A stretch of 64,000 nt of DNA from Longimicrobiales bacterium. GTDB lineage: Bacteria; Gemmatimonadota; Gemmatimonadetes; Longimicrobiales; Gaopeijiaceae. The position numbers were made by a program, and so were the translations under genes. The notes under the pieces were generated by a model. It did no database searches. It saw nothing but the letters and a program-made list of their open reading frames with translations, and was not told where the DNA came from. Location of the stretch: NCBI GenBank assembly GCA_965238005.1, contig OZ250165.1, positions 544,001 through 608,000 on the forward strand, in the 5' to 3' direction. The first letter of the stretch is position 1, and the number at the start of each line of letters is the position of its first letter. Of the stretch, positions 11,328 through 64,000 are shown one piece after another.

Positions 11328-11330
11328 GGC

Positions 11331-16906: not shown

Positions 16907-16922
16907 TGAATTGGTCCTGGAA

Positions 16923-17474: not shown

Positions 17475-17534
17475 AAGTCCTGCCGCCCGGATGGGGGTGG
17501 GTGGGAGCAAGAGTCGTCTGTCTGAAACGGCAGG

Positions 17535-48032: not shown

Positions 48033-48911
48033 GTGTCCAAGTTGGTCGGACTCCCTTACCACCAGGTCGACGCCTTCACGGACACGCCCTATCAAGGAAA
48101 CCCCGCCGCCGTCTGCCTCGTCGAACGGCCTTTGAGCCCTCACGCCATGCAGGCGGTGGCCTCGGAGATGAACCTCTCCGAGACCGCCTTCGTCGAGGCT
48201 CCCGATGACTCCGGCGTACGTCGACTCCGCTGGTTCACTCCGACGACGGAGGTTCCCCTCTGCGGCCACGCCACCCTTGCCAGCGGACACGTCCTCCAGT
48301 CGTTGGGCCACACCCCTCCCTACCGCTTCAGCTCCGCAAGTGGTCCTGTGATCGTCCACGTCGACCCGGACAGGGCCCTACGCCTCGACTTTCCGTCGGA
48401 CGAGTGCACGGTGGTCGAGCCCCGCGACGACGTGCTGGCGGCGCTTGGACTCACGGAGGCGGTGACGTGTCTGTCGGGCTCCCTCAACTACATCGTCCGG
48501 GTCGCGAGCCGGGACGTCGTCGTCGGGCTAGCACCGAACTTCTCGGCGCTGGGCGGAATCGACCTGGGTGAGGATGTGATCGTGTTGTCCGTCACGGCCC
48601 CGGGCGAGGCGGCCGGTGGCGCCGGAGAAGCAGGTGCTAGAGCGGCTGCGGTCACCGACGAGGTAGATGTGGCATCACGCGTCTTCGCACCGTGGGCCGG
48701 TGTCGATGAGGATCCCGTGACCGGGGTAGCCCACACGGCGCTGGGACCCTACTGGTCCGCAGTGCTCGGAAGAGCCGAGTTCACGGCCCGACAGGGCGGC
48801 CGCCGCCGTGGACGGCTGCGAGTGCGGGTTGCGGGTGAGCGGGTCCATCTCATCGGACACGCCGTGACGGTGGCGGAGGGCACCCTGGTGCTGCCGCCCG
48901 GAGAGGCCTGA
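48033..48911 (+). CDS. PhzF-family isomerase/epimerase
   Basis: VDAFT..GNPAAV, EMNLSETAF, EVPLCGHATL, EDPVTG. Confidence 0.9.
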   Translation: MSKLVGLPYHQVDAFTDTPYQGNPAAVCLVERPLSPHAMQAVASEMNLSETAFVEAPDDSGVRRLRWFTPTTEVPLCGHATLASGHVLQSLGHTPPYRFSSASGPVIVHVDPDRALRLDFPSDECTVVEPRDDVLAALGLTEAVTCLSGSLNYIVRVASRDVVVGLAPNFSALGGIDLGEDVIVLSVTAPGEAAGGAGEAGARAAAVTDEVDVASRVFAPWAGVDEDPVTGVAHTALGPYWSAVLGRAEFTARQGGRRRGRLRVRVAGERVHLIGHAVTVAEGTLVLPPGEA

Positions 48912-48936
48912 CCGGCGGCCGGCCGAGCCGAGCCGG

Positions 48937-49682
48937 TCAGAACGTGCCGACCAGTCCGAAAAAGAGCTGACCGTCGTTGTTGGATCGGGCACCGCGGTCG
49001 ACGGCCTCGGTATCGAACGCGTCCACAAAGGAGAGCTGCACGGCGATCCGTTCGTTGAGCTGGAGCGCGAAGCTGTTGCGGGACGTCAGCGTATAGACGG
49101 AGAGGTCCGACGCCTCGGGCTCATACGCGGTGTCGCTCTCGAATCGTAGGCGACCCCCGCCGGCACCCCTGACGAGCTTGAACCGGGCAGACCACTTCGC
49201 CACCACGCCCTCCTCTTCGCCGGCACCTTCACGCGGAATCGTCTTCTCGGCGATCACGGCGAGGCTCAGCTCGGCCTGCGTGTCATCGCCGGATCCGAAC
49301 TGGTACCGCACACCGGCACCGGCGTTGTAACGGAGGTCGATCTTCTTCTCGAAGATCGATTCGATCTTCCCCCGCACGAAGCCGTTCAGGGCGCTGCCCC
49401 GATCGAAGTTCACGTCCAGAGCCGCGTCCCACGCCCGCTTGTTCACGAAGTTGTCACCCTCCGCGGTGCTGGCCTCCCCATACGTGAAGTTGGTCCGGCC
49501 GGCCAGACCGAGACTGCCCCGCTCCAGAGTCCCCGAGAGGGAGGTGGTGAACAGCGCACCTGATGGTTGCCGAAGAAGACATTCGCCCCCAGCTCGGTCT
49601 TGGCCGACCAGCTCTTCTCCTGCCCATGAGCGGGAACGGCGATCAGGATGAGGCCCGTGAGACCGAGGATCACACCTCTCAT
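48937..49682 (-). pseudogene. DUF481-like outer-membrane beta-barrel protein, frameshifted
   Basis: Signal peptide MRGVILGLTG...WSAKTELGANVFFGN in one frame; barrel body (LFTTSL...RYNAGAG...NNDGQLFFGLVGTF) in another; shift near 49555-49570. Confidence 0.65.
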
Positions 49683-49940
49683 GTGCGACTCTCCGTAACG
49701 AAACGTGTCCGCCCATCTCGGACTTGCACCCGTGATCAGCCGCGCACCCGCACCAGGTGTTCTGGAACGGCCACGGACTACCCCGCCACAGTATGGGTGT
49801 TCGCATCCCGAGGCCCGCACGGAGATGAGTGATGCTCACCCGTTGCTCACCCCTTGCCCGCCCCGCTCGCTCCGAACACGTTAACCCCCCTTATCACCCC
49901 GACGAGCAGATCCCTCATCTCATCTTTCGCTGAAGCGGAA

Positions 49941-50186
49941 TTGGGCAACATTTCCGAGCTTTCTCTCGCGGGTCTCACGATCCGGATCGAGCGGGACCTG
50001 TGCGTGGGGTTCGGCGACTGCATCGATGTCGCCCCGGACGTATTCGAGCTCGACGACGAAGGCATCGCCGTGTTCAAGACGGGCGATCCCGCCGTGGACC
50101 GGGAGGTGCTGCTCGACGCCTGCTCGTCCTGCCCGGTCGACGCTCTGACGGCCTTGGACGAGGAGGGAGCGCAGCTCGTCCCGTAG
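49941..50186 (+). CDS. Ferredoxin (probable 3Fe-4S, single cluster); start uncertain
   Basis: CVGFGDC..APDVFELDDEG...CPVDAL. Confidence 0.85.
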   Translation: MGNISELSLAGLTIRIERDLCVGFGDCIDVAPDVFELDDEGIAVFKTGDPAVDREVLLDACSSCPVDALTALDEEGAQLVP

Positions 50187-50196
50187 CCGGTGACTG

Positions 50197-51108
50197 TTGC
50201 CAATCGAGATGCGGAAGATCCGGACGTACCAGGAGGTCACCCACGAGACGGGATCGCAGCTCCTCGAGCAGGTACTCGAGCAGAACCAGCGACTGGCGGA
50301 CCGCCTCTCCCGGGTAGGGTCGGTGGTCGCCGTCGCCAGCGGCAAGGGTGGGGTGGGAAAGAGCGCCGTCACCGCGAACCTGGCCGCCGCCCTGGCCCAA
50401 CGGGGACTGGAGGTCGGGGCGGCGGACGCGGACCTCAACGGCCCCTCCCTGGGCCGGATGCTGGGGGTTTCCGGTGCCCGCTTCGTCGATCGATCAGATG
50501 GTGTGGAGCCGGCCCTGAGCCCCACCGGCGTCCGGGTCATGTCGATGGAGCTGCTCCAGCAGGACGAGGATGCACCGCTTCGCTGGCGCGAGCCGTCCAC
50601 CGGTCGGTTCATATGGCAGAGCGCCATGGAGACCGGCGCTCTCAGGGAGTTTCTGGGCGACGTGGCCTGGGGTGACCTGGACGTTCTGCTGGTGGACGTA
50701 CCGCCCGGAACGGACAAGATTGCGCGGCTCCTCGAGCTGGTCCCGGGCCTCCACCAGATGCTCCTCGTGACGACGCCGTCGGAGGCGGCCCGCTTCGTCG
50801 TGTCGAAGTCGGTGCGGATGGCGCGCGAGGCGGAAGTCTCGACGGTGGCCCTCGTGGCGAATATGACGGAGCACGCCTGCTCGTCGTGCGGTCACACGTC
50901 TCAGCTGTTCGGCGGGGACGGGGCACGACGCCTCGCCGAGGAGTCAGGCGTGCCGCTCTGGGCCGACATTCCGTTCGACGCACGCCTTGGGGCCTCCACC
51001 GACCTGGGTTCGCCTCTGGTGCTGGAAGATCCGGAGGCGGCCTCCAGCCGCGCCCTCCTCGCCCTAGCGGACAGGGTCGCCGCCAAGATGGAGGAGAGCG
51101 CCCGATGA
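50197..51108 (+). CDS. Mrp/ApbC/NBP35-family Fe-S carrier ATPase
   Basis: ASGKGGVGKS, DADLNGPS, VDVPPGT, NMTEHACSSC. Confidence 0.9.
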   Translation: MPIEMRKIRTYQEVTHETGSQLLEQVLEQNQRLADRLSRVGSVVAVASGKGGVGKSAVTANLAAALAQRGLEVGAADADLNGPSLGRMLGVSGARFVDRSDGVEPALSPTGVRVMSMELLQQDEDAPLRWREPSTGRFIWQSAMETGALREFLGDVAWGDLDVLLVDVPPGTDKIARLLELVPGLHQMLLVTTPSEAARFVVSKSVRMAREAEVSTVALVANMTEHACSSCGHTSQLFGGDGARRLAEESGVPLWADIPFDARLGASTDLGSPLVLEDPEAASSRALLALADRVAAKMEESAR

Positions 51109-51575
51109 AGTTCCTTTGCATCGAGTGTGACAACGTCATGGACTTCGCCGAGCGGCAGCTTCCTGGTGACGGCACCCTGGCCGCAGTGTTCTCCTGCGGC
51201 TCGTGCGGGAGGGAGGTGGCCATGCTCACGAACCCCATGGAGACCCAGCTCGTGTCCAGCCTGGGGATAAAGATCGGTGGGCGAGAGGTGCCCGCTCAAC
51301 CCCTCGAGATGGTTCGCAGCTCTCTGGAGGGGGGGAGAGAGGAGGCCTTCGCTATATCGGAGGACATCCCCAGACAACCGGCCGGGCAAGCCTCCCAGGC
51401 CGGTTCGGTCCTCTGGAGTCCCGAGGCGACCGAGCGGATGCAGAAGGTCCCCAGCTTCGTGCGGGGGATGGTGAAGCGGATCTACGTCGACTGGGCCAAG
51501 GAGCACGCGGTAGCCGAGATAACGCCCGAGGTCATGGACCGGGCTCGGACGGAGTTGGGCCTGGAGGGCATGTAG
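51105..51575 (+). CDS. Zn-ribbon (CxxC...CxxC) + PCP_red-like domain protein
   Basis: CIECD, CGSCG; C-terminal WSPEATERMQKVPSFVRGMVKR...ITPEVMDRAR; overlaps the Mrp stop (ATGA). Confidence 0.75.
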   Translation: MKFLCIECDNVMDFAERQLPGDGTLAAVFSCGSCGREVAMLTNPMETQLVSSLGIKIGGREVPAQPLEMVRSSLEGGREEAFAISEDIPRQPAGQASQAGSVLWSPEATERMQKVPSFVRGMVKRIYVDWAKEHAVAEITPEVMDRARTELGLEGM

Positions 51576-51751
51576 GCTGGGGGCCTCGGCGGGATCGGTC
51601 GACACCGGGCCTCCTCTTGCCGGCGTTGGTTCTCTTCGGCGGACTGCTCGTCACGGGGGGTCTGGGACGATATTGGACCGTGCGTGCAGGGGCCTGATGC
51701 CGTGATTAACATGGGGATTTCCCACACGGTATCAGTGCCCCCTCGCATTTA

Positions 51752-51781
51752 TTGACAGGTCTCAGAAAGGCCGGGTATACT
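51752..51781 (+). promoter_or_regulatory. Near-consensus sigma70 promoter
   Basis: TTGACA-N18-TATACT, about 280 nt upstream of the USP gene. Confidence 0.6.
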
Positions 51782-51837
51782 GGCCCCCGGTAGGATCCCT
51801 GACATCCTCGAGACTGAGAAGCACGTCACCATACATC

Positions 51838-52035
51838 GGGTCGCGGGGGGTCTGCCGGCCCCTTTATGACCCTGGTTGCAACGCGAATCGTTGCCCGAGC
51901 GCCAGACATCTAGCTGGATCAGTACAGCCTAGATCGATGATCGATCTTCCCATTCCGAAGCTGAGGAGTGGGGACGCTCCGGTAAGTCTCCGGAGGATGG
52001 AGAGCTTTGTGCTGCTGGCGGGAGGATGCGCTCGG
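51838..52035 (+). ncRNA. Candidate structured 5' leader RNA
   Basis: Several hairpins plus an enclosing CCGAGCGC/GCGCTCGG stem between the promoter and the RBS. Confidence 0.3.
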
Positions 52036-52060
52036 CTAGAGGGCTATGCCCGAGGTATTT

Positions 52061-54202
52061 ATGTACCGTGAAGTCTTCGTACCAGTAGACAACTCCCAAC
52101 ATTCCTATTGGGCCGTGGACCGGGCCATCGAGGTCTGTTCCCACTTCGACGGACGGATCACCGGGAACCACGTCTATGCGGCCCGCCTGCACGACGTTCG
52201 CTTTCGGCAGCTGGAAACCGGCCTCCCGGCCCAGTTCCAGACCGCCCAGGAGATCAAGCGACAGAGGAAGATCCATGACAAGCTGATCGAGAAGGGCCTC
52301 CAGCTCATCTCAGATTCTTTCCTCGACCAGACGGCGAAGGCGTGCGACTCCGCAGGCGTCCTCCTTACCAGGCAGCTCCTCGAAGGAATCAATTACGAGG
52401 AGGTAATCCGTGAAGCCAACGGTGGCAGCGGACGACTGCCAAGTCTCATCGGCTTCGACCCGAACATCGCCGACAAGTACGACGGGGGCGCGACGGTTCG
52501 GAGCGATGTGAAGATAGGCGAGGACGGCCGAATCGTGGCCGAAGATGAAGAGCAGGATGAGAAGCTTGCCGGCTCGAGTGGTCGCCAATACGACCTGTTG
52601 GTCATCGGAGCCCACGGCATCGGCAAACAGCCGTACTCCCAGTTGGGCGGGATGGTCTCTCGGGTAATCCGCGAGGTCGAGAAGGACACCCTCCTCATCA
52701 GAGACGAGAGGCCGCTGCAGAACGGCAATTGGATCGTCTGCGTCGACGGTTCGTCGTACTCCTACAAGGCCATGCGCCTGGCGCTCGAGATGGCCCGGGA
52801 GTTCGGTGCGAAGCTCCACGTCTGCTCCGCCTTCGACGTCGAGTACCACCACGCCGTCTTCGGCAACATCAAGGACATCCTCTCGGCGCAGGCCTCGAAG
52901 GTGTTCAAGTTCGAGGAACAGGAGGAGCTCCACAACAACATCATCGACAAGGGCCTCCTGAAGCTCGCCCAGGCCAACCTCAAGCGCGCTCAGGTCATGG
53001 CCGACGAGTTCCCCGACGTGGACGTGGAGACACAAATCCTCGTCGGAAAGCCCTTCCAGTGCATCCTCCAGTGGATCGAAGAGATCGAGCCGAGCCTCCT
53101 GGTCCTGGCACGTCACGGCGGGCACCGTATCGAGGACACCGACATGGGCTCGCAGGCGGACAACCTGTGCAGGCTCGCCCCCGGTAACATCCTTCTCGTT
53201 GGCACTCTGGACGTCCGTCCGGACGACATCCCGTGGATCGAAGAGGACGGCGAAACGGGCCTGGAGTGGTCGCCCGACGCGGAGGTCCGGATCCTGCGCG
53301 TGCCTCCCTTCGCACTCGGCATCGCGCGCAAGGCCGTGGAGGAGTACGTCCTCGACAACTACGGACCCGGGGCCAACGGCACGTATCGGGAAGACCCACT
53401 CACGCCAGCGCGTGGCAGCGCCTCGAACGGTGCCGGGTCGAGCGGCGTGTCCGGGCCGAGCGACGCGGCCGGGACCGACACCCCCACCGAGCCGGGCACC
53501 GCCGTGCCTCCCCTAGGAGCCGACGGCCTCCCCATGGTGACCAGTGCGCGGCTGGACGAGGCCATCCAGAAACTCCTGCCTACGCATATGCAGCTGATCA
53601 TGGGCATCGGCACCGCGGAAGAGCTCGCCCTCGCCGAGGTAAAGGCCGAAGAGGCGATGAAGCGCACGGTGGTAGAGGGTCTGGACGCGGACCCGCTGCC
53701 GGAGGTCGCCATGGTCTCGGCTAAGTGTCCTTACACGGGACACGTCGAGAGCCGCGAGCGAGCGGCCAAGGATCCCATCCAGTGGACCCAGGAGGCCTTC
53801 GAACGACTGAGGCTCGTTCCTCTCATCGCCCGGCCCCTGGCCCGCAACACCGTGGAGCGCTTCGCCCGTGAGCACGACTTCTGGCGTGTGACGACGCTGG
53901 TCATGGACGAGAACAAGCAGGCCATGATCGAGGCGGACGAGTTCGACATGGACACCATGCTGGTCATGTTCCGCGAGCTCCAGACCAAGCAGATCAGGGC
54001 GGAGGCGGAAGGGGTCGACGGCCTCACCCCCGAGATGCGGAGGTTCATCGAGGAAGCCAAGGCCAGCGGCGTGACACGCTGCCCCATCCGCGATGTGGCG
54101 GAAGCGGCGGACCAGTGTCCGGTGGATTTCAAGACCGTCTCGCCCGAGGACGCCAAGGCCGCCATCGAGCAGTTCATGAGCAAAGAGGCCGGCGAAGCGT
54201 GA
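52061..54202 (+). CDS. Double universal-stress-protein domain protein with two PCP_red-like modules and Cys-Pro motifs
   Basis: VFVPVDNSQHS, DLLVIGAHG, IVCVDGSSYS, MGSQADNLCR; WSPDAE...VPPF and WTQEAFERL...VP; KCPY, RCPI, QCPVDF; start at ATG 52061 after GAGG. Confidence 0.8.
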   Translation: MYREVFVPVDNSQHSYWAVDRAIEVCSHFDGRITGNHVYAARLHDVRFRQLETGLPAQFQTAQEIKRQRKIHDKLIEKGLQLISDSFLDQTAKACDSAGVLLTRQLLEGINYEEVIREANGGSGRLPSLIGFDPNIADKYDGGATVRSDVKIGEDGRIVAEDEEQDEKLAGSSGRQYDLLVIGAHGIGKQPYSQLGGMVSRVIREVEKDTLLIRDERPLQNGNWIVCVDGSSYSYKAMRLALEMAREFGAKLHVCSAFDVEYHHAVFGNIKDILSAQASKVFKFEEQEELHNNIIDKGLLKLAQANLKRAQVMADEFPDVDVETQILVGKPFQCILQWIEEIEPSLLVLARHGGHRIEDTDMGSQADNLCRLAPGNILLVGTLDVRPDDIPWIEEDGETGLEWSPDAEVRILRVPPFALGIARKAVEEYVLDNYGPGANGTYREDPLTPARGSASNGAGSSGVSGPSDAAGTDTPTEPGTAVPPLGADGLPMVTSARLDEAIQKLLPTHMQLIMGIGTAEELALAEVKAEEAMKRTVVEGLDADPLPEVAMVSAKCPYTGHVESRERAAKDPIQWTQEAFERLRLVPLIARPLARNTVERFAREHDFWRVTTLVMDENKQAMIEADEFDMDTMLVMFRELQTKQIRAEAEGVDGLTPEMRRFIEEAKASGVTRCPIRDVAEAADQCPVDFKTVSPEDAKAAIEQFMSKEAGEA

Positions 54203-55578
54203 TCCGCGGCCTGGACCGTACGCGCTCCTCGGCGGCGACACTGCCACGGCCGGCCCCGGTCGGTCGGGAAGAGCCTCGGCTCGGAGGCGAGGGGGAGAGC
54301 TACGTCCCCCACATTGTCGCCTGGAACTTGACGAAACGCTGCAACCTCGAGTGCGCGCACTGCTACATCTCCGCCGGATCTTGGCACCTTGCCTCCGAAG
54401 AGCTCTCCACGGAGCAGTGCTTCCGGATCATGGACGAGATCCTCGAGGTCAATCCCAACCCCATGCTGATCCTGACCGGTGGGGAGCCCCTGGTTCGGGA
54501 CGATCTGGAGGCTCTCGCCGAGAGAGCCACGTCCCTTGGCGCGACCGTGGTCGTCGGGACCAACGGCATCGGGCTCACCGACGAGCGCATCGAGTCCTTG
54601 ATGGCGGCGGGAATCAAGGGCGTCGCGGTGAGTATCGACTCGCTTCGGCCCGAATATCACGATCGCTTTCGCCACGGGGGCGGCGCACTGGCCGATACCA
54701 TGGCCGCCGTCGAGCGTTGTGCCCGCCATGAGCTCGATTTCGTCATCCAGACCACGGTGACCACCGGGAACCGTCATGAGATCGCCGAGGTGGCGCGCTG
54801 GTCTGCGGCGGCGGGAGCCGTCTCCTTCAACGTCTACTTCGTGGTTCCCACCGGAAGAGCCGAGCACATGCGCGGGATGTCGCCGTCCGAGAACGACGAC
54901 GTCTTGAAGGAGCTGCTCGAGCTGGAGAGGACCTACCGCGGCCGGATGATGGTCCGCTCCAAGTGTCAGCCACAGCTCATGCGCCATGTGCTGCAGGGGG
55001 ATCCGGATTCGCCCCTGCTCAACTACGAGACCCGGTGCCCATGCGGCGTGCACTACGTGCGCATCACTCCCGAAGGGAAGGTGACTCCCTGCCCATACAT
55101 GCCCGTCGTGGCCGGCGACCTCATGACGGACAGCTTCCAGACGATCTGGAGAACGTCTGAGGTCTTCACAGAGCTCCGATCCGGTAGCCTCTCGGGGCGC
55201 TGCGGCCGGTGCGAGTATCGCGAGGTGTGCGGCGGTTGCCGTGCCCGCGCTTACGCCGACGGCGGCGATTTCATGGGCCCGGACGACTCGTGCGTGTACG
55301 AGCCTACGGGCGAGGCGCCCCTGGTGATTCCGGGGGATCGTGTCTCATACGGTCAGCCCGTCACGTCTGAATTGTCTTGGTCTCCGGAGGCTCGAGCCCG
55401 CCTGGAGCGAGTGCCAAGCTTCGTCCGTGGGGTAGTGACGGCCCGCGTGGAAAAATTTGCCCTCGAGAAGGGATATGCCCGCGTAGATACCGAGGTCATG
55501 GCCGAGGTCCGTAAGAGCCTTCCGGTGGACTTCTCGAAAAAGCTTCCGTTCTTCCTCGGCAGGGGAGGATCAGCGTGA
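54199..55578 (+). CDS. Radical SAM/SPASM enzyme (AhbC/AhbD/NirJ-like) with C-terminal PCP_red-like module
   Basis: AWNLTKRCNLECAHCY, LTGGEPL, VSIDS, SPASM CPCG...PCP...CGRCEYREVCGGCRARA; GTG start overlaps the upstream TGA. Confidence 0.85.
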   Translation: MIRGLDRTRSSAATLPRPAPVGREEPRLGGEGESYVPHIVAWNLTKRCNLECAHCYISAGSWHLASEELSTEQCFRIMDEILEVNPNPMLILTGGEPLVRDDLEALAERATSLGATVVVGTNGIGLTDERIESLMAAGIKGVAVSIDSLRPEYHDRFRHGGGALADTMAAVERCARHELDFVIQTTVTTGNRHEIAEVARWSAAAGAVSFNVYFVVPTGRAEHMRGMSPSENDDVLKELLELERTYRGRMMVRSKCQPQLMRHVLQGDPDSPLLNYETRCPCGVHYVRITPEGKVTPCPYMPVVAGDLMTDSFQTIWRTSEVFTELRSGSLSGRCGRCEYREVCGGCRARAYADGGDFMGPDDSCVYEPTGEAPLVIPGDRVSYGQPVTSELSWSPEARARLERVPSFVRGVVTARVEKFALEKGYARVDTEVMAEVRKSLPVDFSKKLPFFLGRGGSA

Positions 55579-57377
55579 GCCCGACGGCTCGGCGCGGCGG
55601 TATGGCTTTGAAGCTCCTGGGAGCCCTGGGCCTGATGGGCCTGGCCTTCCACATCTTCCCGGACGTCGCCTGGGCCCAGGACGCGGCCGTTGCCCGCGAG
55701 TACGGTGACTTCCCACTGGTCGGGAGTCGGATCGCGATCTGGGTGTCGGCACAGGTGCACCTTCTCTTCGCCGCCTTCGTGCTCGGCGTTCCCATGTTCG
55801 CCGTGGTGGTCGAGGCCATCGGCATCTTCGGGGGCGAGGAGAAGTACGACAAGCTCGCCAAGGAGTTCACCCGGCTCCTCCTTGTGGCCTACTCCGCCAC
55901 GGCCATCTGGGGAGCGATCCTGGTCTTCCTGCTCATCACGCTTTATCCCAAGCTCTGGCTGTACCTGGCGGAGATCTTCGATGCCTCCATGTGGGTGTAC
56001 GTGGGCCTGTTCTTCTTGGAGTCGTTCACGCTCTACCTCTACTACTATGGCTGGGATCGCTGGAAGAAGGGGCGTGCCAAGCTGGTCCACTGGTCTCTGG
56101 GCATCATGCTCAACGTCTGGGGCACCATGGTCATGTTCATCGCCAATTCCTGGCTCACATACATGATGAGTCCCCCCGCCGATGTCGGTCCCGACACGGC
56201 ACCCGCCATGGTCCAGTTCTGGAGCGCCTTCGCGAACGCGACCTGGATGCCCATTAACATCCACAGGTTCATCGCCAACGTGGTCTTCGGGGGAGCCATC
56301 GTGGGGGCGTACTCGGCGTATCGTTTCCTCATGGCCAAGACGGACGAGGAGCGGGCCCACTACGATTGGATGGGCTACGTGGGCAACCTCGTCGCCATCG
56401 GGGCACTCATCGTCTTGCCCTTCGCCGGCTACTACCTGGGCCGGGAGATCTACGAGTTCAACCAGCAGATGGGCATCACCATGATGGGTGGCTTCATGAG
56501 CTGGCTGTGGATCATCCAGGCCTTCCTCATCGGCGTGCTCTTCCTGACTGGCAACTACTACCTGTGGGTGGGTATGGGGCGCATTCCCGGAGCCGAGCGC
56601 TTCACCCCTTACACGAAGTACATGCTGTTCGTCCTGGTCATTGGCGTGATCGTGTGGGCGACGCCCCACACCATGATCGCCAACCGCGAAGAGATCGCGG
56701 CCATGGGAGGTACTCACCACCCCTTCCTGGGCGTCCTGGGCGTCATGAGCGCCAAGAACACAGCGGTGAACATCATGATCCTGACGACGTTCCTTTCGTT
56801 CCTTCTCTACCGGCGGGCGAACATGCGCCCGACGGTCAGCTGGGCGCGAACAGGAACCATGGTGCAGGGCGCGCTGTTCGTGATCTCGGCCGGGATCGTG
56901 ATCTTCTACGGGATCTACGGATACTTCGTCAGCGCCATCGTCAGGATCGGATTCTCGGTCTATCAGGTGCTTGCGGTCCTGTTCACCATCGGGGCCGTGG
57001 TCGGCATCGACCTCTTCCTGAGCCGGGGCGCTGAGTCCCGGGGGGCCATCCGGTGGGGCCAGATGCCCCCCCGGTCGCAGTACGCCCTCTTTGTCCTCGC
57101 CGTCACCTTCACGTGGCTGATGGGTCTCATGGGCTTCGCTCGCAGCGGAATCCGCCAGCACTGGCACGTGTGGGAGGTGATGCGCGACACGAGTGAGTGG
57201 GCGGCTACGCCTGCGTTGGGGTATGCCTCGATAGTCATCTCGGCGTGTGTGCTGATCTTCCTGACGCTGGTGGCCTTCATCTTCTGGCTCGGCGGGCTGG
57301 CCGAGAAACCGGTGGTCTCGAGTGTGGGGGCCGGGGCGCAGTCGGGACCGGAGCTGGCTCCGGTGGCGGGCGACTGA
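55575..57377 (+). CDS. Cytochrome bd oxidase subunit I-like (CydA-like) membrane protein
   Basis: Many TM helices; QVHLLFAAFVLG, FFLESFTLYLYYYGW, NIHRFIAN, ARSGIRQHW (GRQPW-like). Confidence 0.8.
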   Translation: MSPTARRGGMALKLLGALGLMGLAFHIFPDVAWAQDAAVAREYGDFPLVGSRIAIWVSAQVHLLFAAFVLGVPMFAVVVEAIGIFGGEEKYDKLAKEFTRLLLVAYSATAIWGAILVFLLITLYPKLWLYLAEIFDASMWVYVGLFFLESFTLYLYYYGWDRWKKGRAKLVHWSLGIMLNVWGTMVMFIANSWLTYMMSPPADVGPDTAPAMVQFWSAFANATWMPINIHRFIANVVFGGAIVGAYSAYRFLMAKTDEERAHYDWMGYVGNLVAIGALIVLPFAGYYLGREIYEFNQQMGITMMGGFMSWLWIIQAFLIGVLFLTGNYYLWVGMGRIPGAERFTPYTKYMLFVLVIGVIVWATPHTMIANREEIAAMGGTHHPFLGVLGVMSAKNTAVNIMILTTFLSFLLYRRANMRPTVSWARTGTMVQGALFVISAGIVIFYGIYGYFVSAIVRIGFSVYQVLAVLFTIGAVVGIDLFLSRGAESRGAIRWGQMPPRSQYALFVLAVTFTWLMGLMGFARSGIRQHWHVWEVMRDTSEWAATPALGYASIVISACVLIFLTLVAFIFWLGGLAEKPVVSSVGAGAQSGPELAPVAGD

Positions 57378-57438
57378 TGCGCAGAATCGGCACTCGCGGC
57401 TTTAGCCCGACTTCTGACCCAGGAGACTGAGACACGCG

Positions 57439-58236
57439 ATGCTTGCAGAGAATCTGAGGATCCTGTCAGTCGTCATCGGGACGCTGGCCGTCTTCACCCT
57501 CGTTGCGAACTCCATCCCTCAGGTTCAGTCCGAGGTGCCCCAGGAGCTGACCTTCGGAGCCAACGTCACGGAGGCCGAGCTGGTATCGTCGGGAGAAGTC
57601 TTGTACAACGGTGCGGGCGGCTGTGTGGCCTGTCACGGACTCGGGACTCGCGCCCCGAATCTACTCACGGACCAGGGCGGCGTTGGCACCATCGGAGTCC
57701 GTTGCGGCAACCGGGTGAGCGGTCAGGACTGCAAGGCCTACCTGTACGCGTCCATGACCGATCCCAGCGACTACCTCGTGGAGGGCTTTAACCCGATCAT
57801 GCCGGACATGCGGCGATCGCTGTCCAATGCGCAGATCTGGTCCGTGGTGGCCTTCCTCCAGGCCCAGGGTGGCGAGGTGACGGTCACGGGCGCCGACGTG
57901 GCCGACGACGGGGGAGGGTCCGAGTCCACCGCTGCGGCAGCGTCGGCCACGGCGGCTCCGGCGACCGCGTCTCTCGACCCGCTCGAGATCATGCGTGCCA
58001 ACACCTGCCTGGTATGCCACCAGTTCAACGGTGAGGGCGTCCCCATGGGACCGGCCTTCGACGGGATCGGCGGACGTGTGGACGCAGACTATATTCGGCA
58101 ATCGATCCTGGATCCTTCGGCCGGCGCGTCGGAGGGGTTCGAAGTGTTCTTGGGCGTCATGCCCCAGATTTTCGGAGCGCAGCTGACGGCCGCCCAGCTG
58201 GAAGCCGTCGTTCAGTTCTTGGCCAGCCAACGGTAA
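57439..58236 (+). CDS. Membrane-anchored diheme cytochrome c
   Basis: N-terminal TM helix, CVACH and CLVCH, MP axial-ligand motifs. Confidence 0.88.
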   Translation: MLAENLRILSVVIGTLAVFTLVANSIPQVQSEVPQELTFGANVTEAELVSSGEVLYNGAGGCVACHGLGTRAPNLLTDQGGVGTIGVRCGNRVSGQDCKAYLYASMTDPSDYLVEGFNPIMPDMRRSLSNAQIWSVVAFLQAQGGEVTVTGADVADDGGGSESTAAAASATAAPATASLDPLEIMRANTCLVCHQFNGEGVPMGPAFDGIGGRVDADYIRQSILDPSAGASEGFEVFLGVMPQIFGAQLTAAQLEAVVQFLASQR

Positions 58237-58253
58237 GGGGAGGCGGAACACGA

Positions 58254-59051
58254 ATGGGCAAGCACTTCAAGCATCCGTTCGGTCAGGCGGTGGCGGTTCT
58301 GGTGCTGTCGTACGTGTTGCTGGACTACGGCATCGTGTATCTCCCCCCTCTGGTTGGCATCGCCAGCGCGCCGGTCCCGAACTCCGTCGTTCTTCAGTTC
58401 ATGCTGACGGCCGCAGTGGGGGTTCTGCTCTGGGTGAGCGACAACGAGGAGCGTTGGACGGAGTTCAAGGCGCCGATCCACCGGACGATGGTGGATCCGG
58501 AGCGCAAGACGGTGCGAGGCGTCTTCATGGTGGCCATTCCGTTCCTGGTAGCCTTCGGCACGTTCAACCAGGTCCGCCCCTCGGTAGCCGCGCCTCTGAC
58601 CCTCAGGTCCATCCATCCGGCGCCTCCCGGCCAGATCGACTTCCAGGGCGAGACCATGCGGCTCTCCGGGCTCGAGAATCCTCTGAGGACAACCGGTTCT
58701 CTGGAGGATCACTACGAGGAGGGCAAGCGGGTCTACTACCAGAATTGTCTCGCCTGTCACGGCGACGGGCTCAGCGGGCAGGGGCACTACGCAGCAGCGT
58801 TCAACCCGACTCCGGCCAGCTTCGAGGACGTGGGCACTATCGCGCAGCTCACCGAGAGCTTCGTGTTCTGGCGGATCGCCAAGGGCGGCCCGGGGCTTCC
58901 CAACGAGGGCGCGCCCTGGAACTCGGCCATGCCGGCCTGGGAGGACTTCCTCACCGCGGACGAGATCTGGTCCGTGATCATCTTCCTGTACGAACAGGCA
59001 GGGCACGAGCCCCGAACCTGGGAGGAAGCCGAGGAAGGGGAAGAGCAGTGA
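58254..59051 (+). CDS. Membrane-bound monoheme cytochrome c
   Basis: Three hydrophobic segments, CLACHGD, SAMPAW. Confidence 0.85.
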   Translation: MGKHFKHPFGQAVAVLVLSYVLLDYGIVYLPPLVGIASAPVPNSVVLQFMLTAAVGVLLWVSDNEERWTEFKAPIHRTMVDPERKTVRGVFMVAIPFLVAFGTFNQVRPSVAAPLTLRSIHPAPPGQIDFQGETMRLSGLENPLRTTGSLEDHYEEGKRVYYQNCLACHGDGLSGQGHYAAAFNPTPASFEDVGTIAQLTESFVFWRIAKGGPGLPNEGAPWNSAMPAWEDFLTADEIWSVIIFLYEQAGHEPRTWEEAEEGEEQ

Positions 59052-60892
59052 TGCACGCCGTGACCGGGGGCACGGTGAAGAGCCGGTGGGTTGGATCCCT
59101 TCAAATACTAGTGGGTGGGACCCGTCGCGTGTTCTCTTTTTCGCTCGCGGGCGGGGCCCTTCGAGGATTCCCCTCTACGCTCCAGCAATCTGCGATTGAA
59201 CGTCGCTTCGAGGGGAATTCCGCGGCGGGCCCTCGGCAAGGGGTGCTAGAGAACACGGAGGCGGGCCCCCGGACGTGTGGGACAAGGGATCCTCGCATCG
59301 GCCCGGTCTCGCGGCCGACGGTGGCGGCATCTGTGCTCTTCTTGGTGGGCGGCCTGGGGGCGGGAGGCTTGGCGGCTCAGGAGGGGGATGATCTCGGGAA
59401 GGCCACTTACGAGAGGTGGTGTGCGGGGTGCCACGGGGTCGACGGGACGGGTCAGGGCCCGGGCGCCGAGATGATGCTCCCTCGCCCGCGCGACTTCACT
59501 CAGGCCCTCTACCAGATCCGGTCGACGGCCAGCGGGGAGCTCCCGACGGACGAGGACATGCTCAACGTCATCGACCTCGGGATGCCCGGTACGACTATGC
59601 CGGGTTGGGAGGATCTGCTGTCGCGGCAGGAGCGCGATGCCCTGGTTCAATACCTCAAGGGCTTCTCGCGTTTCTTCTCGCCCGACGAAGTCCCCGAGCC
59701 CCTCGACTTCGGCCGCCCCACGCGGGTGTCGGACGAAGTGCTCGCCGAGGGCAGGGCCCAATACGACGCCATCGAGTGCTGGAAGTGTCATGGCGACCAA
59801 GGTCGTGGGGAGGGGCAGTCCTCGCCCACCCTTGGCGACGACAGCGACTTCCCGATCCGAGCGGCCGATCTCACGGAGAACTGGCTGTTCAACGGTGGTG
59901 GCACGGTGGAGGACATCTATCGCCGCCTTCGAACGGGCCTGGACGGGACCCCCATGCCCAACTTCTCGGACCTGATCGACGCCCAGGTCATGACCGACGA
60001 CCAGCTCTGGGCCCTGGCGCATTACGTCCGGAGCTTCTCCCCCGAGGAAGAGCCCGGCATCAACGAGGTCGTGCGGGCCGCACTGCTGGAGGACGTGCCG
60101 CTTCCCACGTCCGTGGACGACCCCTTGTGGGACACGGCCGAGCCGGCCTATATCCCGCTGGCGGGACAGATCATCGTGAAGCCCCGCTGGTTCGACCCTC
60201 GTGTGGACGGCATGTGGGTCCAGGCTCTTCACGACGGCCAGGAGGTCGCCGTGCGGGTCCGCTGGAGCGACCCCAGCCTGAGCCCCGATCCCGACTGGGC
60301 CGACTGGAAGTCGCAGGTTATCTCGTTCATGGGCCCCAAAGAGGGAGACCCACCGGAGTCGGGACCCACACCGGACCAGCTCCTTCTCCAGTTTCCCATG
60401 CAGATGCCGCAGGGGATGGAGCGCCCGTACTTCATGCGGGGCGACAACCGTCGACCGGTCTACCTCTGGCAGTGGCAGAGCGACCGAAGCACGGCCCTCG
60501 AGGGCGAGGCCCGGGGGATCGGCACGGAGAGCTACCCGTCGGACGGACAGGATCTCGCGGTGAGCGCCTCCCACGAGGACGGGCAGTGGCAGGTTATGTT
60601 CACTCGCACCCTGCTCACCGAGGACGAGGGCGATCTGGACTTCGTCACAGGCGAGGCCATTCCGGTGGCGTTCTTCGCCTGGGACGGGGACAACGGAGAA
60701 TCGGGCACGCGTAGCTCCGTGAGCTCGTGGTACTTCTTGTTCCTCCAGGAGCCCACTCCCAACACGGTGTTCGTCGCTCCCGTAGTGGCTATGATGCTCA
60801 CGGCGGGACTGGGGATTCTCGTGGTCGGTAGGGCGCAGAAGCGAGAGCGTGAAGGCGAGATCGTGGAAGAGACCGAATCAACACAAGGCTGA
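59051..60892 (+). CDS. Diheme cytochrome c fused to an ethylbenzene-dehydrogenase-gamma-like (EB_dh) domain, with C-terminal TM anchor
   Basis: CAGCH and CWKCH; PRPRDFT; VQALHDG..VRVRWSD, PYFMRGD, GQWQVMFTRTL, AFFAWDG; ATG overlaps the upstream TGA. Confidence 0.8.
   Translation: MHAVTGGTVKSRWVGSLQILVGGTRRVFSFSLAGGALRGFPSTLQQSAIERRFEGNSAAGPRQGVLENTEAGPRTCGTRDPRIGPVSRPTVAASVLFLVGGLGAGGLAAQEGDDLGKATYERWCAGCHGVDGTGQGPGAEMMLPRPRDFTQALYQIRSTASGELPTDEDMLNVIDLGMPGTTMPGWEDLLSRQERDALVQYLKGFSRFFSPDEVPEPLDFGRPTRVSDEVLAEGRAQYDAIECWKCHGDQGRGEGQSSPTLGDDSDFPIRAADLTENWLFNGGGTVEDIYRRLRTGLDGTPMPNFSDLIDAQVMTDDQLWALAHYVRSFSPEEEPGINEVVRAALLEDVPLPTSVDDPLWDTAEPAYIPLAGQIIVKPRWFDPRVDGMWVQALHDGQEVAVRVRWSDPSLSPDPDWADWKSQVISFMGPKEGDPPESGPTPDQLLLQFPMQMPQGMERPYFMRGDNRRPVYLWQWQSDRSTALEGEARGIGTESYPSDGQDLAVSASHEDGQWQVMFTRTLLTEDEGDLDFVTGEAIPVAFFAWDGDNGESGTRSSVSSWYFLFLQEPTPNTVFVAPVVAMMLTAGLGILVVGRAQKREREGEIVEETESTQG
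59082..59302. repeat. Long imperfect palindrome read in frame within the cytochrome N-terminus
   Basis: Three nested arm pairs: GGATCCCTT/AAGGGATCC, CGTGTTCTCT/AGAGAACACG, ATTCCCCTC/GAGGGGAAT. Confidence 0.7.
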
Positions 60893-60916
60893 ACCATTCA
60901 CAGTATCGGAGGATGT

Positions 60917-61768
60917 ATGTCGGATCGAACTGCACTGCGCTGGGTGATGACCCCCGCGCTTGTGACACTCTTGGCCGTGGGTTGTGGTGGGGGTGACGGC
61001 GGTGGAAGCGGCTCCGGGGACTCCGGTGGCGGAGCCGCGGTGGAGAACCCTGTCGATGCGGCCACCGCGGGCAACATCGCCGGGACCGTCGTCTTCGAGG
61101 GTGACGCTCCCGCGATGGACGCCATCGACATGAGCGACGAGCAGGTGTGCGCGGACAAGCACGCCTCCACGCCCATGGCCGAAGAGGTCGTGGTGAACGA
61201 CGGCTCTCTCGCCAATGTGTTCGTCTACGTGAAGCAGGGGCTGGAGAGCCTCCAGTTCCCGACGCCAGGCCCGGCACTCCTGGACCAGGACGGATGCACG
61301 TACATTCCGCACGTTCTGGGGGTCATGACGGGCCAGGACATCACCATCCGCAACAGCGACGGTCTTCTGCACAACATCAACGCGTCGCCGACGGAGCAGC
61401 GCGGCTTCAACACGAGCCAGCCCATGAACATGGAGAGCACCCGCAGCTTCCGCACGGTCGAGGTCATGGTGCCGGTGCGCTGTGACGTGCACGGGTGGAT
61501 GAACGCATACATCGGGGTTCTCGATCACCCGTATCACTCGGTGTCCGGCTCCGACGGAAGCTTCGACCTGTCCACGCTGCCCCCGGGTGACTATGTCATC
61601 GAGGCGTGGCACGAGCGCTACGGCACCCAGACGCAAAACGTCACCGTGGCTACTGGCGAAACGGCAGAGATCACGTTCACATTCAGCGCTTCCATGGCCA
61701 GCGCCGTGGTGCCGTTGGGTGAGGCTGTCGATCTCCACGACCACGGCGTGGCCGTCGACAGAGACTAG
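60917..61768 (+). CDS. Lipoprotein with cupredoxin-like and carboxypeptidase-regulatory-like domains
   Basis: Lipobox LAVGC, DQDGCTYIPHV, LHNIN, CDVHGWM, AWHERYG. Confidence 0.75.
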   Translation: MSDRTALRWVMTPALVTLLAVGCGGGDGGGSGSGDSGGGAAVENPVDAATAGNIAGTVVFEGDAPAMDAIDMSDEQVCADKHASTPMAEEVVVNDGSLANVFVYVKQGLESLQFPTPGPALLDQDGCTYIPHVLGVMTGQDITIRNSDGLLHNINASPTEQRGFNTSQPMNMESTRSFRTVEVMVPVRCDVHGWMNAYIGVLDHPYHSVSGSDGSFDLSTLPPGDYVIEAWHERYGTQTQNVTVATGETAEITFTFSASMASAVVPLGEAVDLHDHGVAVDRD

Positions 61769-61857
61769 AAGGTGCCGGGTCCGTCGGTCAGCGTCGGCCA
61801 ACGGGCCCGACCCGTCGTGACTGTGAGAGTCAACCTCAAGCTCGGGAGACCAGTGGG

Positions 61858-62541
61858 ATGAACTTTTCCTGGCTCATGCCGGAGACCGTTTCCACCTTCG
61901 GGCCGGCCTTGGACAACCTCTACTACGTGATCCTGTGGATCACGGGAATCGTGTTCTTCATCACGGAGATCACGCTGGTTGTCTTCCTCGTGAAGTACCG
62001 CCACAGGGAAGGTCGCAAGGCGGAGTACATCCACGGGAGCAACAAGGCGGAGGTCGTTTGGACCGTCATACCGTTCATCATCGTCATGGGGCTGGCCATC
62101 TACTCCAAGGGGATCTGGGACGAGATTCGGGATCCGGCGCGCATTCCGCCCGACGCCTACCAGATCGATATTATGGCGAAGCAGTTCGAGTGGAACGCCA
62201 CCTACGCCGGTGCGGACGGCCAGCTCGGCACTTCGGACGACTTCGTATCTCGCAACGCACTGCACATCCCGGTGGATCGGCCGGTGCGGATCAACCTCCG
62301 CGCCGAGGACGTGATCCACTCCTTCTTCCTTCCCCAGTTCCGGGTGAAGCAGGACGCGGTCCCCGGCCACATGACACCGGTCTGGTTCGAGGCGACCCGC
62401 ACGGGTGAGTTCACCCTCGCTTGCGCAGAGTTGTGTGGACTCGGACACTATCGCATGAAGGGGACGGTCACGGTCCATTCGCAGGCCGACTTCCAAGCCT
62501 GGCTTGCCGGCCAGCAAGCCGAGGAGGAGGACGACCGATGA
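61858..62541 (+). CDS. coxB: Cytochrome c oxidase subunit II (CuA)
   Basis: Two TM helices, EVVWTVIP, KQFEW, DVIHSF, CAELCGLGHYRM. Confidence 0.95.
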   Translation: MNFSWLMPETVSTFGPALDNLYYVILWITGIVFFITEITLVVFLVKYRHREGRKAEYIHGSNKAEVVWTVIPFIIVMGLAIYSKGIWDEIRDPARIPPDAYQIDIMAKQFEWNATYAGADGQLGTSDDFVSRNALHIPVDRPVRINLRAEDVIHSFFLPQFRVKQDAVPGHMTPVWFEATRTGEFTLACAELCGLGHYRMKGTVTVHSQADFQAWLAGQQAEEEDDR

Positions 62542-64000
62542 CCACTACCGCTGTAGCCGAGACGCACACCGGCCACGCTGAGGGGCACCACGACCTGGGC
62601 TTCATCAGGACGTACGTGTTCTCCACCGATCACAAGATGATCGCCCGGCAGTTCCTCTTCGCCGCCCTGTTCTTCCTGCTGGTGGGAGGCATCCTGGCCG
62701 GGATGGTCCGCTGGCAGCTCGGGTTCCCCGGTCAACCGATGCCCCTCGGCCGCTTCTTGCCGGACACGATGGCTCCGGGCGGGATCATCCTCCCGGAGTT
62801 CTACAACTCGCTGGTGACGATGCACGCCACCTTCATGGTGTTCTTCGCGCTCATGCCCATGCTTGCGGGTGTCTTCGGCAATCTGCTGATCCCCCTCCAG
62901 ATCGGCGCCGACGACATGGCGTTCCCTCGCCTCAACATGGCGTCCTTCTGGATCGTGCCGGTCGCCGGTGTGGTCATGCTGGCCAGCTTCTTCGTGGAGG
63001 GGGGAGCGGCCGGGGCCGGTTGGACGTCCTACGCGCCCCTGAGCGCATCGGGCGAGTGGACCGGCGTCTACCTGGGACAGCAGCTCTGGCTTGTCAGCCT
63101 CATCATCGTGGGCTTCTCGTCCATCACGGGCGCCATCAACTACGTCTCCACGGTGATCAACATGCGGGCGCCGGGGATGACCTGGTTCCGGATTCCCCTT
63201 GCCACCTGGGCAATCTTCATCACGGCTTGGCTGCTCCTCCTGGCCGTGCCGATCCTGACGGGTGGACTCATCCTGCTGCTGTTCGACCAGACCATCGGGA
63301 CCGCCTTCTTCCGACCCGAGGGGAGCGGCGAGCCGCTATTGTGGCAGCACATCTTCTGGTTCTTCGGCCACCCCGAGGTGTACATCCTGATCCTTCCGGC
63401 TATGGGGTTGGTGTCGGACATAATCTCCTGCAGGTCACGGAAACCGATCTTCGGGTACCACTCCATGGTCCTGGCCCTCGTCTCCATCGCGTTCCTGGGG
63501 TGGATCGTCTGGGGGCACCACATGTTCCAGAGCGGCATGAACCCGCTCCTGGGCATGACGTTCGTGGTCACCACGGTGGTCATCGCCGTGCCGTCGGCCA
63601 TCAAGGTGTTCAATTGGATGGGGACGTTGTGGCGCGGGAACATCCACTTCGACACGCCGCTTCTCCACGCCGTCTCCTTCGTGTCGCTCTTCATCATCGG
63701 CGGCCTGTCGGGAATCTTCATGGCGTCGGCGCCGGTGGACATCTACATCCACGACACGTACTTCATCGTGGCGCATCTCCACTACGTCCTCGTGGGCGGC
63801 ACCCTGTTCGGGATCTTCGCCGGCATCACGTTCTGGTTCCCGAAGCTGTTCGGGCGGATGATGCACGAAGGCCTGGGCAAAGTGCACTGGGTCCTGTCGT
63901 TCATCTTCTACAACTTGACCTTCTTCCCCATGCACAACCTGGGCGTCCAGGGGATGATGCGCCGAATCTACGACCCCAATCAGTACGAGTTCCTGCAGGC
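62538..64000 (+). CDS. coxA: Cytochrome c oxidase subunit I, A1 type (truncated by the window end)
   Basis: Not in the ORF track; ATG 62538 reads STDHKMI, TMHATFMVFF, DDMAFPRLN, WFFGHPEVY, VWGHHMF, YFIVAHLHY. Confidence 0.95.
   Translation, partial: MTTTAVAETHTGHAEGHHDLGFIRTYVFSTDHKMIARQFLFAALFFLLVGGILAGMVRWQLGFPGQPMPLGRFLPDTMAPGGIILPEFYNSLVTMHATFMVFFALMPMLAGVFGNLLIPLQIGADDMAFPRLNMASFWIVPVAGVVMLASFFVEGGAAGAGWTSYAPLSASGEWTGVYLGQQLWLVSLIIVGFSSITGAINYVSTVINMRAPGMTWFRIPLATWAIFITAWLLLLAVPILTGGLILLLFDQTIGTAFFRPEGSGEPLLWQHIFWFFGHPEVYILILPAMGLVSDIISCRSRKPIFGYHSMVLALVSIAFLGWIVWGHHMFQSGMNPLLGMTFVVTTVVIAVPSAIKVFNWMGTLWRGNIHFDTPLLHAVSFVSLFIIGGLSGIFMASAPVDIYIHDTYFIVAHLHYVLVGGTLFGIFAGITFWFPKLFGRMMHEGLGKVHWVLSFIFYNLTFFPMHNLGVQGMMRRIYDPNQYEFLQ

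Follow-up and report, generated by a model that had tools for sequence, protein, structure and literature searches.

A co-inherited gene island in Gemmatimonadota that combines a CydA-like cytochrome module with an AhbD-like helper set and an aa3 oxidase

What does a haem protein related to the CydA subunit of bd oxidases do when it has no quinol site and its gene stands in one string with those of an ordinary aa3 oxidase? The question is raised by one end of the DNA analysed here, a stretch of 64,000 nucleotides (the window; G000:C1:544001-608000) from a genome of 4.84 Mb that is assembled as a single contig with 65% G+C; the nearest named relatives of the window proteins come from Longimicrobiales and other Gemmatimonadota metagenome-assembled genomes. 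From 49941 to the window end all real genes lie on the plus strand, and they belong to an island in three parts: a helper set of a ferredoxin, an Mrp Fe-S carrier and three proteins with PCP_red domains, including an AhbD-like radical SAM enzyme; a bd-like module of a CydA-like haem protein of OR-N type, three membrane-anchored c-type cytochromes and a lipoprotein cupredoxin; and an A1-type aa3 oxidase, CoxBACD. The three parts of the island are inherited together and are not a chance neighbourhood. The reading that we favour, tentatively and at somewhat less than an even chance, is that the bd-like module is a predicted oxygen reductase fed by cytochrome c and cupredoxin, working beside aa3 and supplied with haem by the AhbD-like set. 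The core module is known but biochemically uncharacterised; its setting with aa3 and the AhbD-like set is the new element.

A sequence-only reading of this DNA had listed 12 genes in the string, and checks by open reading frame, Pfam and NCBIfam confirmed all of them at the places given, on one strand and with overlapping stop and start codons. The list was too short, however: the string really holds 14 genes, because coxA, the last of the 12, runs past the window end and is followed by coxC (64335-64991, plus strand; PF00510) and coxD, encoding subunit IV (65019-65285, plus strand; TIGR02229, above its cut-off). Neighbouring genes overlap by 4 bases at four junctions, namely mrp/Zn-ribbon, radical SAM/CydA-like, monohaem cytochrome/dihaem-c-EB_dh and coxB/coxA, and in the third of these the start of the downstream gene is uncertain. 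Upstream, a DUF481 gene on the opposite strand (48937-49839) adjoins the island, and because it is kept in the closest relatives only, we place the beginning of the island at the ferredoxin gene.

Conservation of the string was followed in 69 loci, comprising 10 same-order genomes with a full-length match to the CydA-like protein and 59 further loci, each species being represented by a single genome, which all carry a Gemmatimonadota label and span Longimicrobiales, Gemmatimonadales and Ca. Palauibacter. A gene was scored only where the DNA reaches far enough, and the same strand was required. On these terms the dihaem cytochrome c was found in 58/58 loci, the monohaem cytochrome c in 56/56 and the dihaem-c/EB_dh protein in 51/51, followed by the cupredoxin (49/50), coxB (49/50), coxA (48/48) and coxC (46/46); on the helper side, the radical SAM gene was present in 62 of the 63 loci that reach it, the USP/PCP_red gene in all 48, the Zn-ribbon/PCP_red gene in all 43, mrp in 33 of 34 and the ferredoxin gene in all 34. 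The exceptions are individual loci: L053 has no cupredoxin and a divergent coxBAC (32-45% identity), L028 has no radical SAM gene, and in L052 mrp falls under the 40% identity line used. Gemmatimonadales carry the ferredoxin gene after the Zn-ribbon gene and not before mrp. Otherwise, the arrangement and direction of the genes is the same in two orders, with protein identities of 48-82%.

Presence of the genes was then counted in 301 genomes evenly drawn from the phylum. The CydA-like gene occurs in 86 of them, and the USP/PCP_red gene in 88, which are all 86 bd-like genomes plus G032 and G091; orthologues of the radical SAM enzyme (at least 55% identity) occur in exactly the same 88 genomes, and its remaining matches are about 33% identical and have no PCP_red part. 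In G032 the cluster is cut by the contig end, and in G091 a divergent set lies on a 9.6-kb contig cut at both ends. Orthologues of coxA (E <=1e-170) were also found in 86/301 genomes, 83 of them shared with the CydA-like set; three island genomes (G174, G191 and G241) have no coxA match at this level, and in family f8 the coxA orthologue occurs without the other island genes in 3 of 3 genomes. The DNA of two f8 genomes shows coxBAC with none of the other island genes upstream. Thus the sequence-only reading, which took the string for a single system, is borne out by both synteny and co-occurrence to the extent that the genes form one co-inherited unit.

At the centre of the module stands the CydA-like protein of 600 aa (55575..57377, plus strand). 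Its match to PF01654 (73 bits) is limited to the N-terminal part, at profile positions 2-248 of 418, and in alignment to solved bd oxidases the E. coli residues His19, Glu107 and His186 correspond to H62, E149 and H230. Among 39 sequences, down to 42% identity, H62, H172 and H230 never vary, and M391 and H531 hardly do. The structure model (pLDDT 79.3) shows 13-14 long helices but lacks an extended periplasmic loop, and its ten best matches in the PDB are all CydA chains (E 1e-8 to 2.5e-6). The lack of a Q-loop or quinol site is confirmed by Pfam coverage and by the model. The protein contains no CxxCH motif, and no match to CydB (PF02322) was found in this genome. A His19-type ligand, 13-14 helices and the lack of a Q-loop, of CxxCH and of a CydB partner are the marks of the OR-N family, to which the protein belongs, probably as an OR-N2 member; the missing Q-loop and CxxCH set it apart from the qOR and OR-C families.

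The only other PF01654 gene of the genome encodes a paralogue that is 50% identical to the CydA-like protein. It belongs to a second module (G000:C1:971637-979122; L021:7638-15123) made up of a pair of cupredoxin-type genes, the gene of the paralogue and genes for the three kinds of cytochrome known from the island; it has neither helper set nor cox genes and is followed by an integrase gene. Every genome in which a similar second module was seen (G001, G099, G124, G162 and G316) carries the island as well. The paralogue and the island copy fall in different clades of a quick, unfinished and midpoint-rooted tree, which supports no more than that the paralogue is not a recent copy. The protein P0141, from a named Nitrospira/Manganitrophaceae, is 40% identical to the CydA-like protein and lies in another clade.

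Three cytochromes follow the CydA-like gene on the plus strand, and the five CxxCH motifs claimed for them were all recovered, in a 2+1+2 arrangement. The first is a membrane-anchored dihaem cytochrome c (57439..58236; CVACH and CLVCH) with one N-terminal helix, and the second a monohaem cytochrome c (58254..59051; CLACH, PF13442) with three hydrophobic segments forming N-terminal membrane helices. The third combines a dihaem cytochrome c (PF00034) with an EB_dh domain of the NxrC/EbdC-like type (PF09459, 71.5 bits) and a C-terminal membrane helix (59048..60892); its true start may lie as far as about 59300. Residues 113-332 of this protein match PDB 6h5l_B (E 4e-55), and its EB_dh part matches 2ivf_C, the gamma subunit of ethylbenzene dehydrogenase, and 7b04_C, NxrC of Kuenenia. 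That the dihaem cytochrome is a subunit of a complex with the CydA-like protein is supported by gene fusions of the Rosetta-stone kind: three 50%-cluster representatives (P0122, P0124 and P0132) join a CydA-like protein to cytochrome c domains, and in P0132 the stretch 642-787 aligns with residues 7-149 of the window's dihaem cytochrome, anchor helix included (E 1e-15). These fusions are predicted proteins, among which read-through gene calls are possible.

The module ends in a lipoprotein (60917..61768, plus strand; lipobox LAVGC) with a type-1 copper cupredoxin domain and a C-terminal beta-sandwich, the latter labelled CarboxypepD_reg by Pfam. No cupredoxin family of Pfam matches the protein. 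The cupredoxin domain of the model (pLDDT 84.4) has its top Foldseek matches in pseudoazurin and plastocyanin (E 2.5e-5, probability 1.0) and also resembles amicyanin, and H152, C189, H192 and M195 are invariant in 31/31 orthologues and paralogues. These four ligands on a cupredoxin fold are those of a type-1 (blue) copper protein, so the label 'cupredoxin-like' given from sequence holds.

Beyond the lipoprotein gene, coxB (61858..62541, plus strand) encodes subunit II of a haem-copper oxidase, scoring 171.8 bits on TIGR02866 against a cut-off of 147.7; CoxB has the CuA motif H...CAELCGLGHYRM and no fused cytochrome c domain. The coxA gene (62538..64331, plus strand; the window ends at 64000) encodes an A1-type subunit I with 491.9 bits on PF00115. 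The full-length protein reaches 639.9 bits on TIGR02891, narrowly below the cut-off of 670.75 for the CtaD/CoxA equivalog, and it carries GHPEV with the helix VI glutamate, the A1-type signature. The genome holds other respiratory genes. A complete set resembling alternative complex III (ACIII) lies 33 kb upstream of the island, at 10023-17510 on the minus strand, and consists of genes for proteins of 195 aa, 1015 aa (ActB-like), 463 aa (NrfD/ActC-like), 176, 206 and 434 aa; it adjoins no oxidase genes. One cytochrome b gene is found elsewhere in the genome. The idea that the bd-like module replaces complex III was rejected for this genome, which has both ACIII and the cytochrome b gene. A second oxidase set, of caa3 type, occupies window coordinates 73963-77965 on the minus strand (G000:C1:617963-621965), and its coxA is broken: a shift near 76530 puts the N-terminal 71 codons out of frame with the rest, and codon 75397-75399 is an in-frame stop, so that we have here a pseudogene or else an error of the assembly. 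Neither cbb3 nor canonical bd was found in this genome.

A new result of this analysis is that island and cbb3 do not overlap in the sampled genomes. The cbb3 gene ccoN (E <=1e-40) occurs in 80/301 genomes, and none of these is among the 86 island genomes, where 22.9 would be expected. Within family f4, 39 of 125 genomes have the island and 40 have ccoN, with 0 shared; at genus level the island is found in 43 and ccoN in 30 of 128 genera, again with 0 shared where 10.1 are expected. Canonical CydB is present in 106/301 genomes, 17 of which are island genomes (30.3 expected), so that 69 of the 86 island genomes have neither ccoN nor CydB.

These observations suggest the following scheme. Quinol would be oxidised elsewhere, by the ACIII encoded in the window or through the cytochrome b gene elsewhere in the genome, and electrons would pass to the periplasmic haems c and the cupredoxin. 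From there they would reach either CuA of aa3 or, by way of the monohaem and dihaem subunits, the CydA-like protein, whose b haems would reduce oxygen, in a layout resembling CcoN/O/P of cbb3. The radical SAM enzyme may decarboxylate coprohaem to haem b without oxygen, with the ferredoxin as inferred electron source and Mrp as inferred cluster source, and the PCP_red proteins may hand the haem to the module. We favour an oxidase because of the exclusion of cbb3, the lack of another high-affinity oxidase and the CcoNOP-like layout of the subunits. The CydA fold with its kept His19, Glu107 and His186 positions and the fusions to cytochrome c speak for it too, and OR-N proteins are regarded as putative cytochrome c-oxidising O2 reductases in PMC10839748 and bioRxiv 10.1101/2021.01.16.426971. 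A bolder version, which we consider unlikely, makes the module a new class of copper-free, cytochrome c/cupredoxin-dependent oxygen reductase, with b haems only, made by its own oxygen-independent haem synthase, that takes the place of cbb3 in Gemmatimonadota and forms one supercomplex with aa3, sharing an entry wire of five haems and copper.

Several points weigh against an oxygen reductase. In the CydA-like protein the position of E. coli Glu99 is occupied by Tyr142. In the EB_dh domain, the position of EbdC Met108 is Met in just 14/30 sequences and that of Lys201 is Ser or Arg and not conserved, and because these EbdC ligands are not conserved, binding of haem b by this domain is doubtful. 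Canonical CydB accompanies the island in 17/86 genomes. Related genomes are non-independent samples, so that hypergeometric figures for ccoN make the exclusion look stronger than it is, and the mutual exclusion of island and cbb3 could equally reflect the aa3 of the island or the ecology of the lineages. Two terminal oxidases in one operon would be unusual; a donor upstream of an oxidase is commoner, and the order of ACIII then oxidase genes is noted in PMC12342949. According to PMC6606698 and PMC3578206, the related cluster bd-like_3/alt_NxrC_2 of Nitrospira is not the paralogue proposed there as terminal oxidase, the module is kept in anaerobic anammox bacteria, and the original authors suggest an anchor of nitrite oxidoreductase (NXR) or a role like that of alternative complex III. 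As to OR-N proteins in general, PMC10839748 states that none has been assayed, and PMC12342949 likewise treats their O2 reductase activity as putative and unconfirmed by experiment.

Before the rival readings are weighed, the helper set needs description. Its first gene encodes a small single-cluster ferredoxin (49941..50186, plus strand; PF13370 Fer4_13, E 3.4e-10); the frame is open from TTG 49854, and TTG 49941 is the likely start, because orthologues align from residue 30. It is followed on the same strand by a P-loop Fe-S cluster carrier of the Mrp/NBP35/ApbC type (50197..51108; PF10609, 234.6 bits), which scores 211 bits on NF041136 MrpORP, under the cut-off of 450. The next protein (51105..51575, plus strand) joins a Zn-ribbon (CxxC...CxxC) to a C-terminal PCP_red domain (PF08369, E 1.3e-11), and resembles the C-terminus of BchB (PDB 3aek_B residues 452-520); its start overlaps the mrp stop by the 4 bases mentioned above. 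A protein of 718 aa follows, in which USP and PCP_red domains occur twice each (52046..54202, plus strand; PF00582 E 4e-26, PF08369 E 8.5e-14), and then the radical SAM/SPASM enzyme of AhbD/NirJ2 type with a C-terminal PCP_red domain (54115..55578, plus strand; start uncertain between 54115 and about 54300). The best families of this enzyme are NirJ2 (TIGR04055, 281.4 bits) and AhbD (TIGR04545, 270.5 bits), and as both cut-offs are 500 it is a relative and not a member of AhbD/NirJ2; it carries the CxxxCxxC and SPASM cysteines. In solved DPOR structures, the counterpart of the PCP_red domain is the set of C-terminal helices of BchB, and 4 of the 5 PCP_red matches of the genome fall in the helper set. 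Another gene of the Zn-ribbon/PCP_red kind, with 58% identity to that of the island, stands alone beside a transposase-like gene at G000:C1:1537656-1538117 (minus strand).

Among the haem synthesis genes, one of ChdC/HemQ type is present, HemN is matched only under its cut-off, and no HemF was found in the genome. Hence coprohaem is the likely native intermediate, and an AhbD-type enzyme would have its substrate. The helper set most likely serves the bd-like module, because the radical SAM enzyme is only found with the module and coxBAC can stand without the set. The maturation cassette was thus rightly called dedicated, as it goes with the bd-like module rather than with haem synthesis at large. 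Outside the phylum, the evidence for the helper set consists of domain architecture.

The helper set is interrupted by a gap of 470 bases (51576-52045) between the Zn-ribbon and USP genes. Close relatives have genes for an ABC ATPase and an ABC-2 permease at this place (L023:4342-5960; ABC_tran, ABC2_membrane). In this genome a frame at 51590..51697 (plus strand) is a remnant of the permease gene 3' end, as its C-terminus, ending at 51697, resembles that of the L023 permease; the transporter is dispensable for the island, because both genes are lost here bar the end of the permease frame. The gap also holds a conserved promoter-like site of sigma-70 type, TTGACA-18-TATACT (51752..51781, plus strand; 11/12 matches), upstream of the USP gene. 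It is the sole such site in 48800-64000, and both hexamers are invariant in 5/5 aligned genomes while the flanks diverge. From this site to the USP start runs a leader of about 265 bases (51782-52045), the first 90 of which are kept in close relatives; the leader has zero matches in Rfam, as has the whole of 49000-64000. Contigs from two metatranscriptome runs of one study (X19 and X20; 92-99% identical) cover pieces from the USP gene to coxA and span four gene junctions; their depth is zero in the bins of 50828-51841 and coverage is seen from bin 51842 on. These are contigs of relatives, from libraries without a silent-stretch control and with possible DNA carry-over, and they give a weak hint that relatives express the island genes with a start near the promoter-like site.

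How do other readings fare with the same evidence? The module could instead be an electron-transfer complex of the complex III/ACIII-like kind that feeds aa3 and is no oxidase itself. In that case, a new site on the CydA-like b-haem protein would serve for electron exchange with the quinones, and the path between there and CuA of CoxB would lead over the five haems c and the cupredoxin, perhaps within a supercomplex; in nitrite oxidisers and anammox bacteria, the module would work in the opposite direction. Such a feeder would explain the order of module, cupredoxin and coxBACD in 48/48 loci reaching coxA, which is the pattern of a donor upstream of its oxidase; five haems c and a copper centre exceed the needs of a simple entry port, and the authors of PMC3578206 and PMC6606698 propose an ACIII-like or reverse electron flow role for the module conserved in anaerobic anammox. 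But the quinol-binding residues are all missing together with the Q-loop, both in sequence and model and in the description of PMC3578206; the genome already has the complete ACIII and a cytochrome b gene; and what the island excludes is cbb3, an oxidase rather than a complex III. Moreover, the paralogous module with its two cupredoxins stands without cox genes, and the coxBAC clade stands alone in family f8. These last two facts also limit the sequence-only claim that the module is coupled to aa3: the linkage of the genes is real, yet each side can occur without the other. We regard a feeder, the main rival, as rather unlikely, while giving it serious weight.

In the oxidase reading as in the feeder reading, the helper set would supply or tailor the haem of the module; a further reading concerns its product. 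A modified tetrapyrrole specific to the CydA-like protein, in place of ordinary haem b, would fit a radical SAM enzyme that is a paralogue and no equivalog of AhbD/NirJ2 (270-281 bits against 500), occurs solely with the bd-like module, and has an extra PCP_red domain of its own with four further copies on two partner proteins, in a genome that already owns ChdC for haem b. However, bioRxiv 10.1101/2021.01.16.426971 describes an active bd-family enzyme with only b haems, and PCP_red may be a mere docking tag. We judge a special cofactor improbable, and because the genome has a ChdC-type pathway, ordinary oxygen-independent synthesis of haem b from coprohaem is at least as likely. Finally, the three parts could be independent operons that lie side by side by shared regulation or descent, as in a hypoxia or stress island with USP proteins, and share no common pathway. 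The promoter-like site does split the string, and parts can be found on their own, coxBAC in family f8 and the core module at L021 and L083. Against this stand the conserved order and orientation across two orders at 48-82% protein identity, the several junctions that overlap by 4 bases, and the occurrence of radical SAM and USP orthologues outside island genomes only in two fragmentary cases among the 301 genomes, so that independence of the three parts is very improbable. An oxygen reductase beside aa3 remains the reading that we favour.

One neighbour of the island may be mentioned. After coxD, a gene for a 320-aa membrane protein without Pfam or NCBIfam match lies at 65530-66492 on the plus strand. 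Homologues (for example L094:3731-4693) stand beside the island in 26/69 loci; in Longimicrobiales they lie downstream of it, whereas some Gemmatimonadales have them ahead of mrp.

Bd-like complexes of OR-N type have been noted since the first Nitrospira genomes. In Gemmatimonadota, the module is detached from NXR and tied to an ordinary aa3 and a private AhbD-like haem set. The island thereby places an enigmatic module in heterotrophs beside a standard oxidase, where the old question of its role becomes testable, and the outcome would bear on energy conservation in nitrite oxidisers, manganese oxidisers and anammox bacteria.

The sequence-only reading had called the system undescribed. This does not hold for the core module, which is in print for Nitrospira, Nitrospina and anammox bacteria (PMC3578206, PMC6606698) and is classed as OR-N; it still stands for the island with aa3 and helper set in Gemmatimonadota, on which full-text searches, with part of the matches judged by title, found no paper (bioRxiv supplements, which possibly show operon contexts, lie outside such searches). 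According to Luecker et al. 2013 (PMC3578206), Kuenenia, Nitrospira and Nitrospina have in common a gene set with a 14-helix bd-like protein without Q-loop, two cupredoxin-like proteins, a zinc-finger protein, two cytochromes c (a monohaem and a dihaem one) and an alternative NxrC. Mundinger et al. 2019 (PMC6606698) name the set bd-like_3 with two cytochromes c and alt_NxrC_2, leave its role open, and count bd-like_3/alt_NxrC_2 among the 40 most transcribed genes of N. moscoviensis. Such proteins were classed as the OR-N family by Murali, Gennis and Hemp (bioRxiv 10.1101/2021.01.16.426971), in the main text of which, as far as available, the string 'Gemmatimonad' occurs 0 times; a related set in Ca. 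Manganitrophus is called TO_1 in the part of PMC9040806 (Yu et al. 2022) at hand. The metagenome locus L083, which is not of Gemmatimonadota, has the four core genes together at 47% identity.

In comparison with these systems, the helper enzyme is closest to AhbD (TIGR04545) and NirJ2 (TIGR04055), which are its best-scoring families and share the CxxxCxxC and SPASM cysteines, but it has the extra C-terminal PCP_red domain, and unlike AhbD it is linked to the bd-like module and not to ahbABC, in a genome that uses a ChdC-type route. CcoNOP of cbb3 offers a likeness in working only: both combine a membrane catalytic subunit with mono- and dihaem membrane-anchored cytochromes c, and the island cytochromes match the CcoP-type Pfam family PF13442, as in cbb3; because its catalytic subunit is a relative of CydA and not a haem-copper protein, the island module is not of the cbb3 family. 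With OR-N proteins, the CydA-like protein shares the first helices with the His19 ligand, the missing quinol site, the lack of CxxCH and the 14 helices, and its gene, like theirs, is a lone cydA-like one whose operon also encodes alternative electron donors. TO_1 pairs, as the island does, a bd-like protein with a periplasmic cytochrome b-type (EB_dh) protein and is proposed to carry periplasmic electrons to O2; it is assigned to Mn(II) lithotrophy, and no aa3 or AhbD-like set is described with it in the accessible part of PMC9040806. By gene content and published description, the bd-like_3/alt_NxrC_2 cluster is a further counterpart, and its genes may be orthologous. Like that cluster, the island has a 14-helix CydA-like protein without Q-loop, a zinc-finger protein, cupredoxin-like proteins, a mono- and a dihaem cytochrome c, and a dihaem-c/EB_dh protein (about 60-67 kDa) that begins with a signal peptide and ends in a helix. 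Whereas the cluster of the nitrite oxidisers adjoins NXR in autotrophs, with no aa3 mentioned beside it in the sections at hand, the Gemmatimonadota island has no NXR genes adjacent and is flanked instead by an A1-type aa3 downstream and an AhbD-like helper set upstream.

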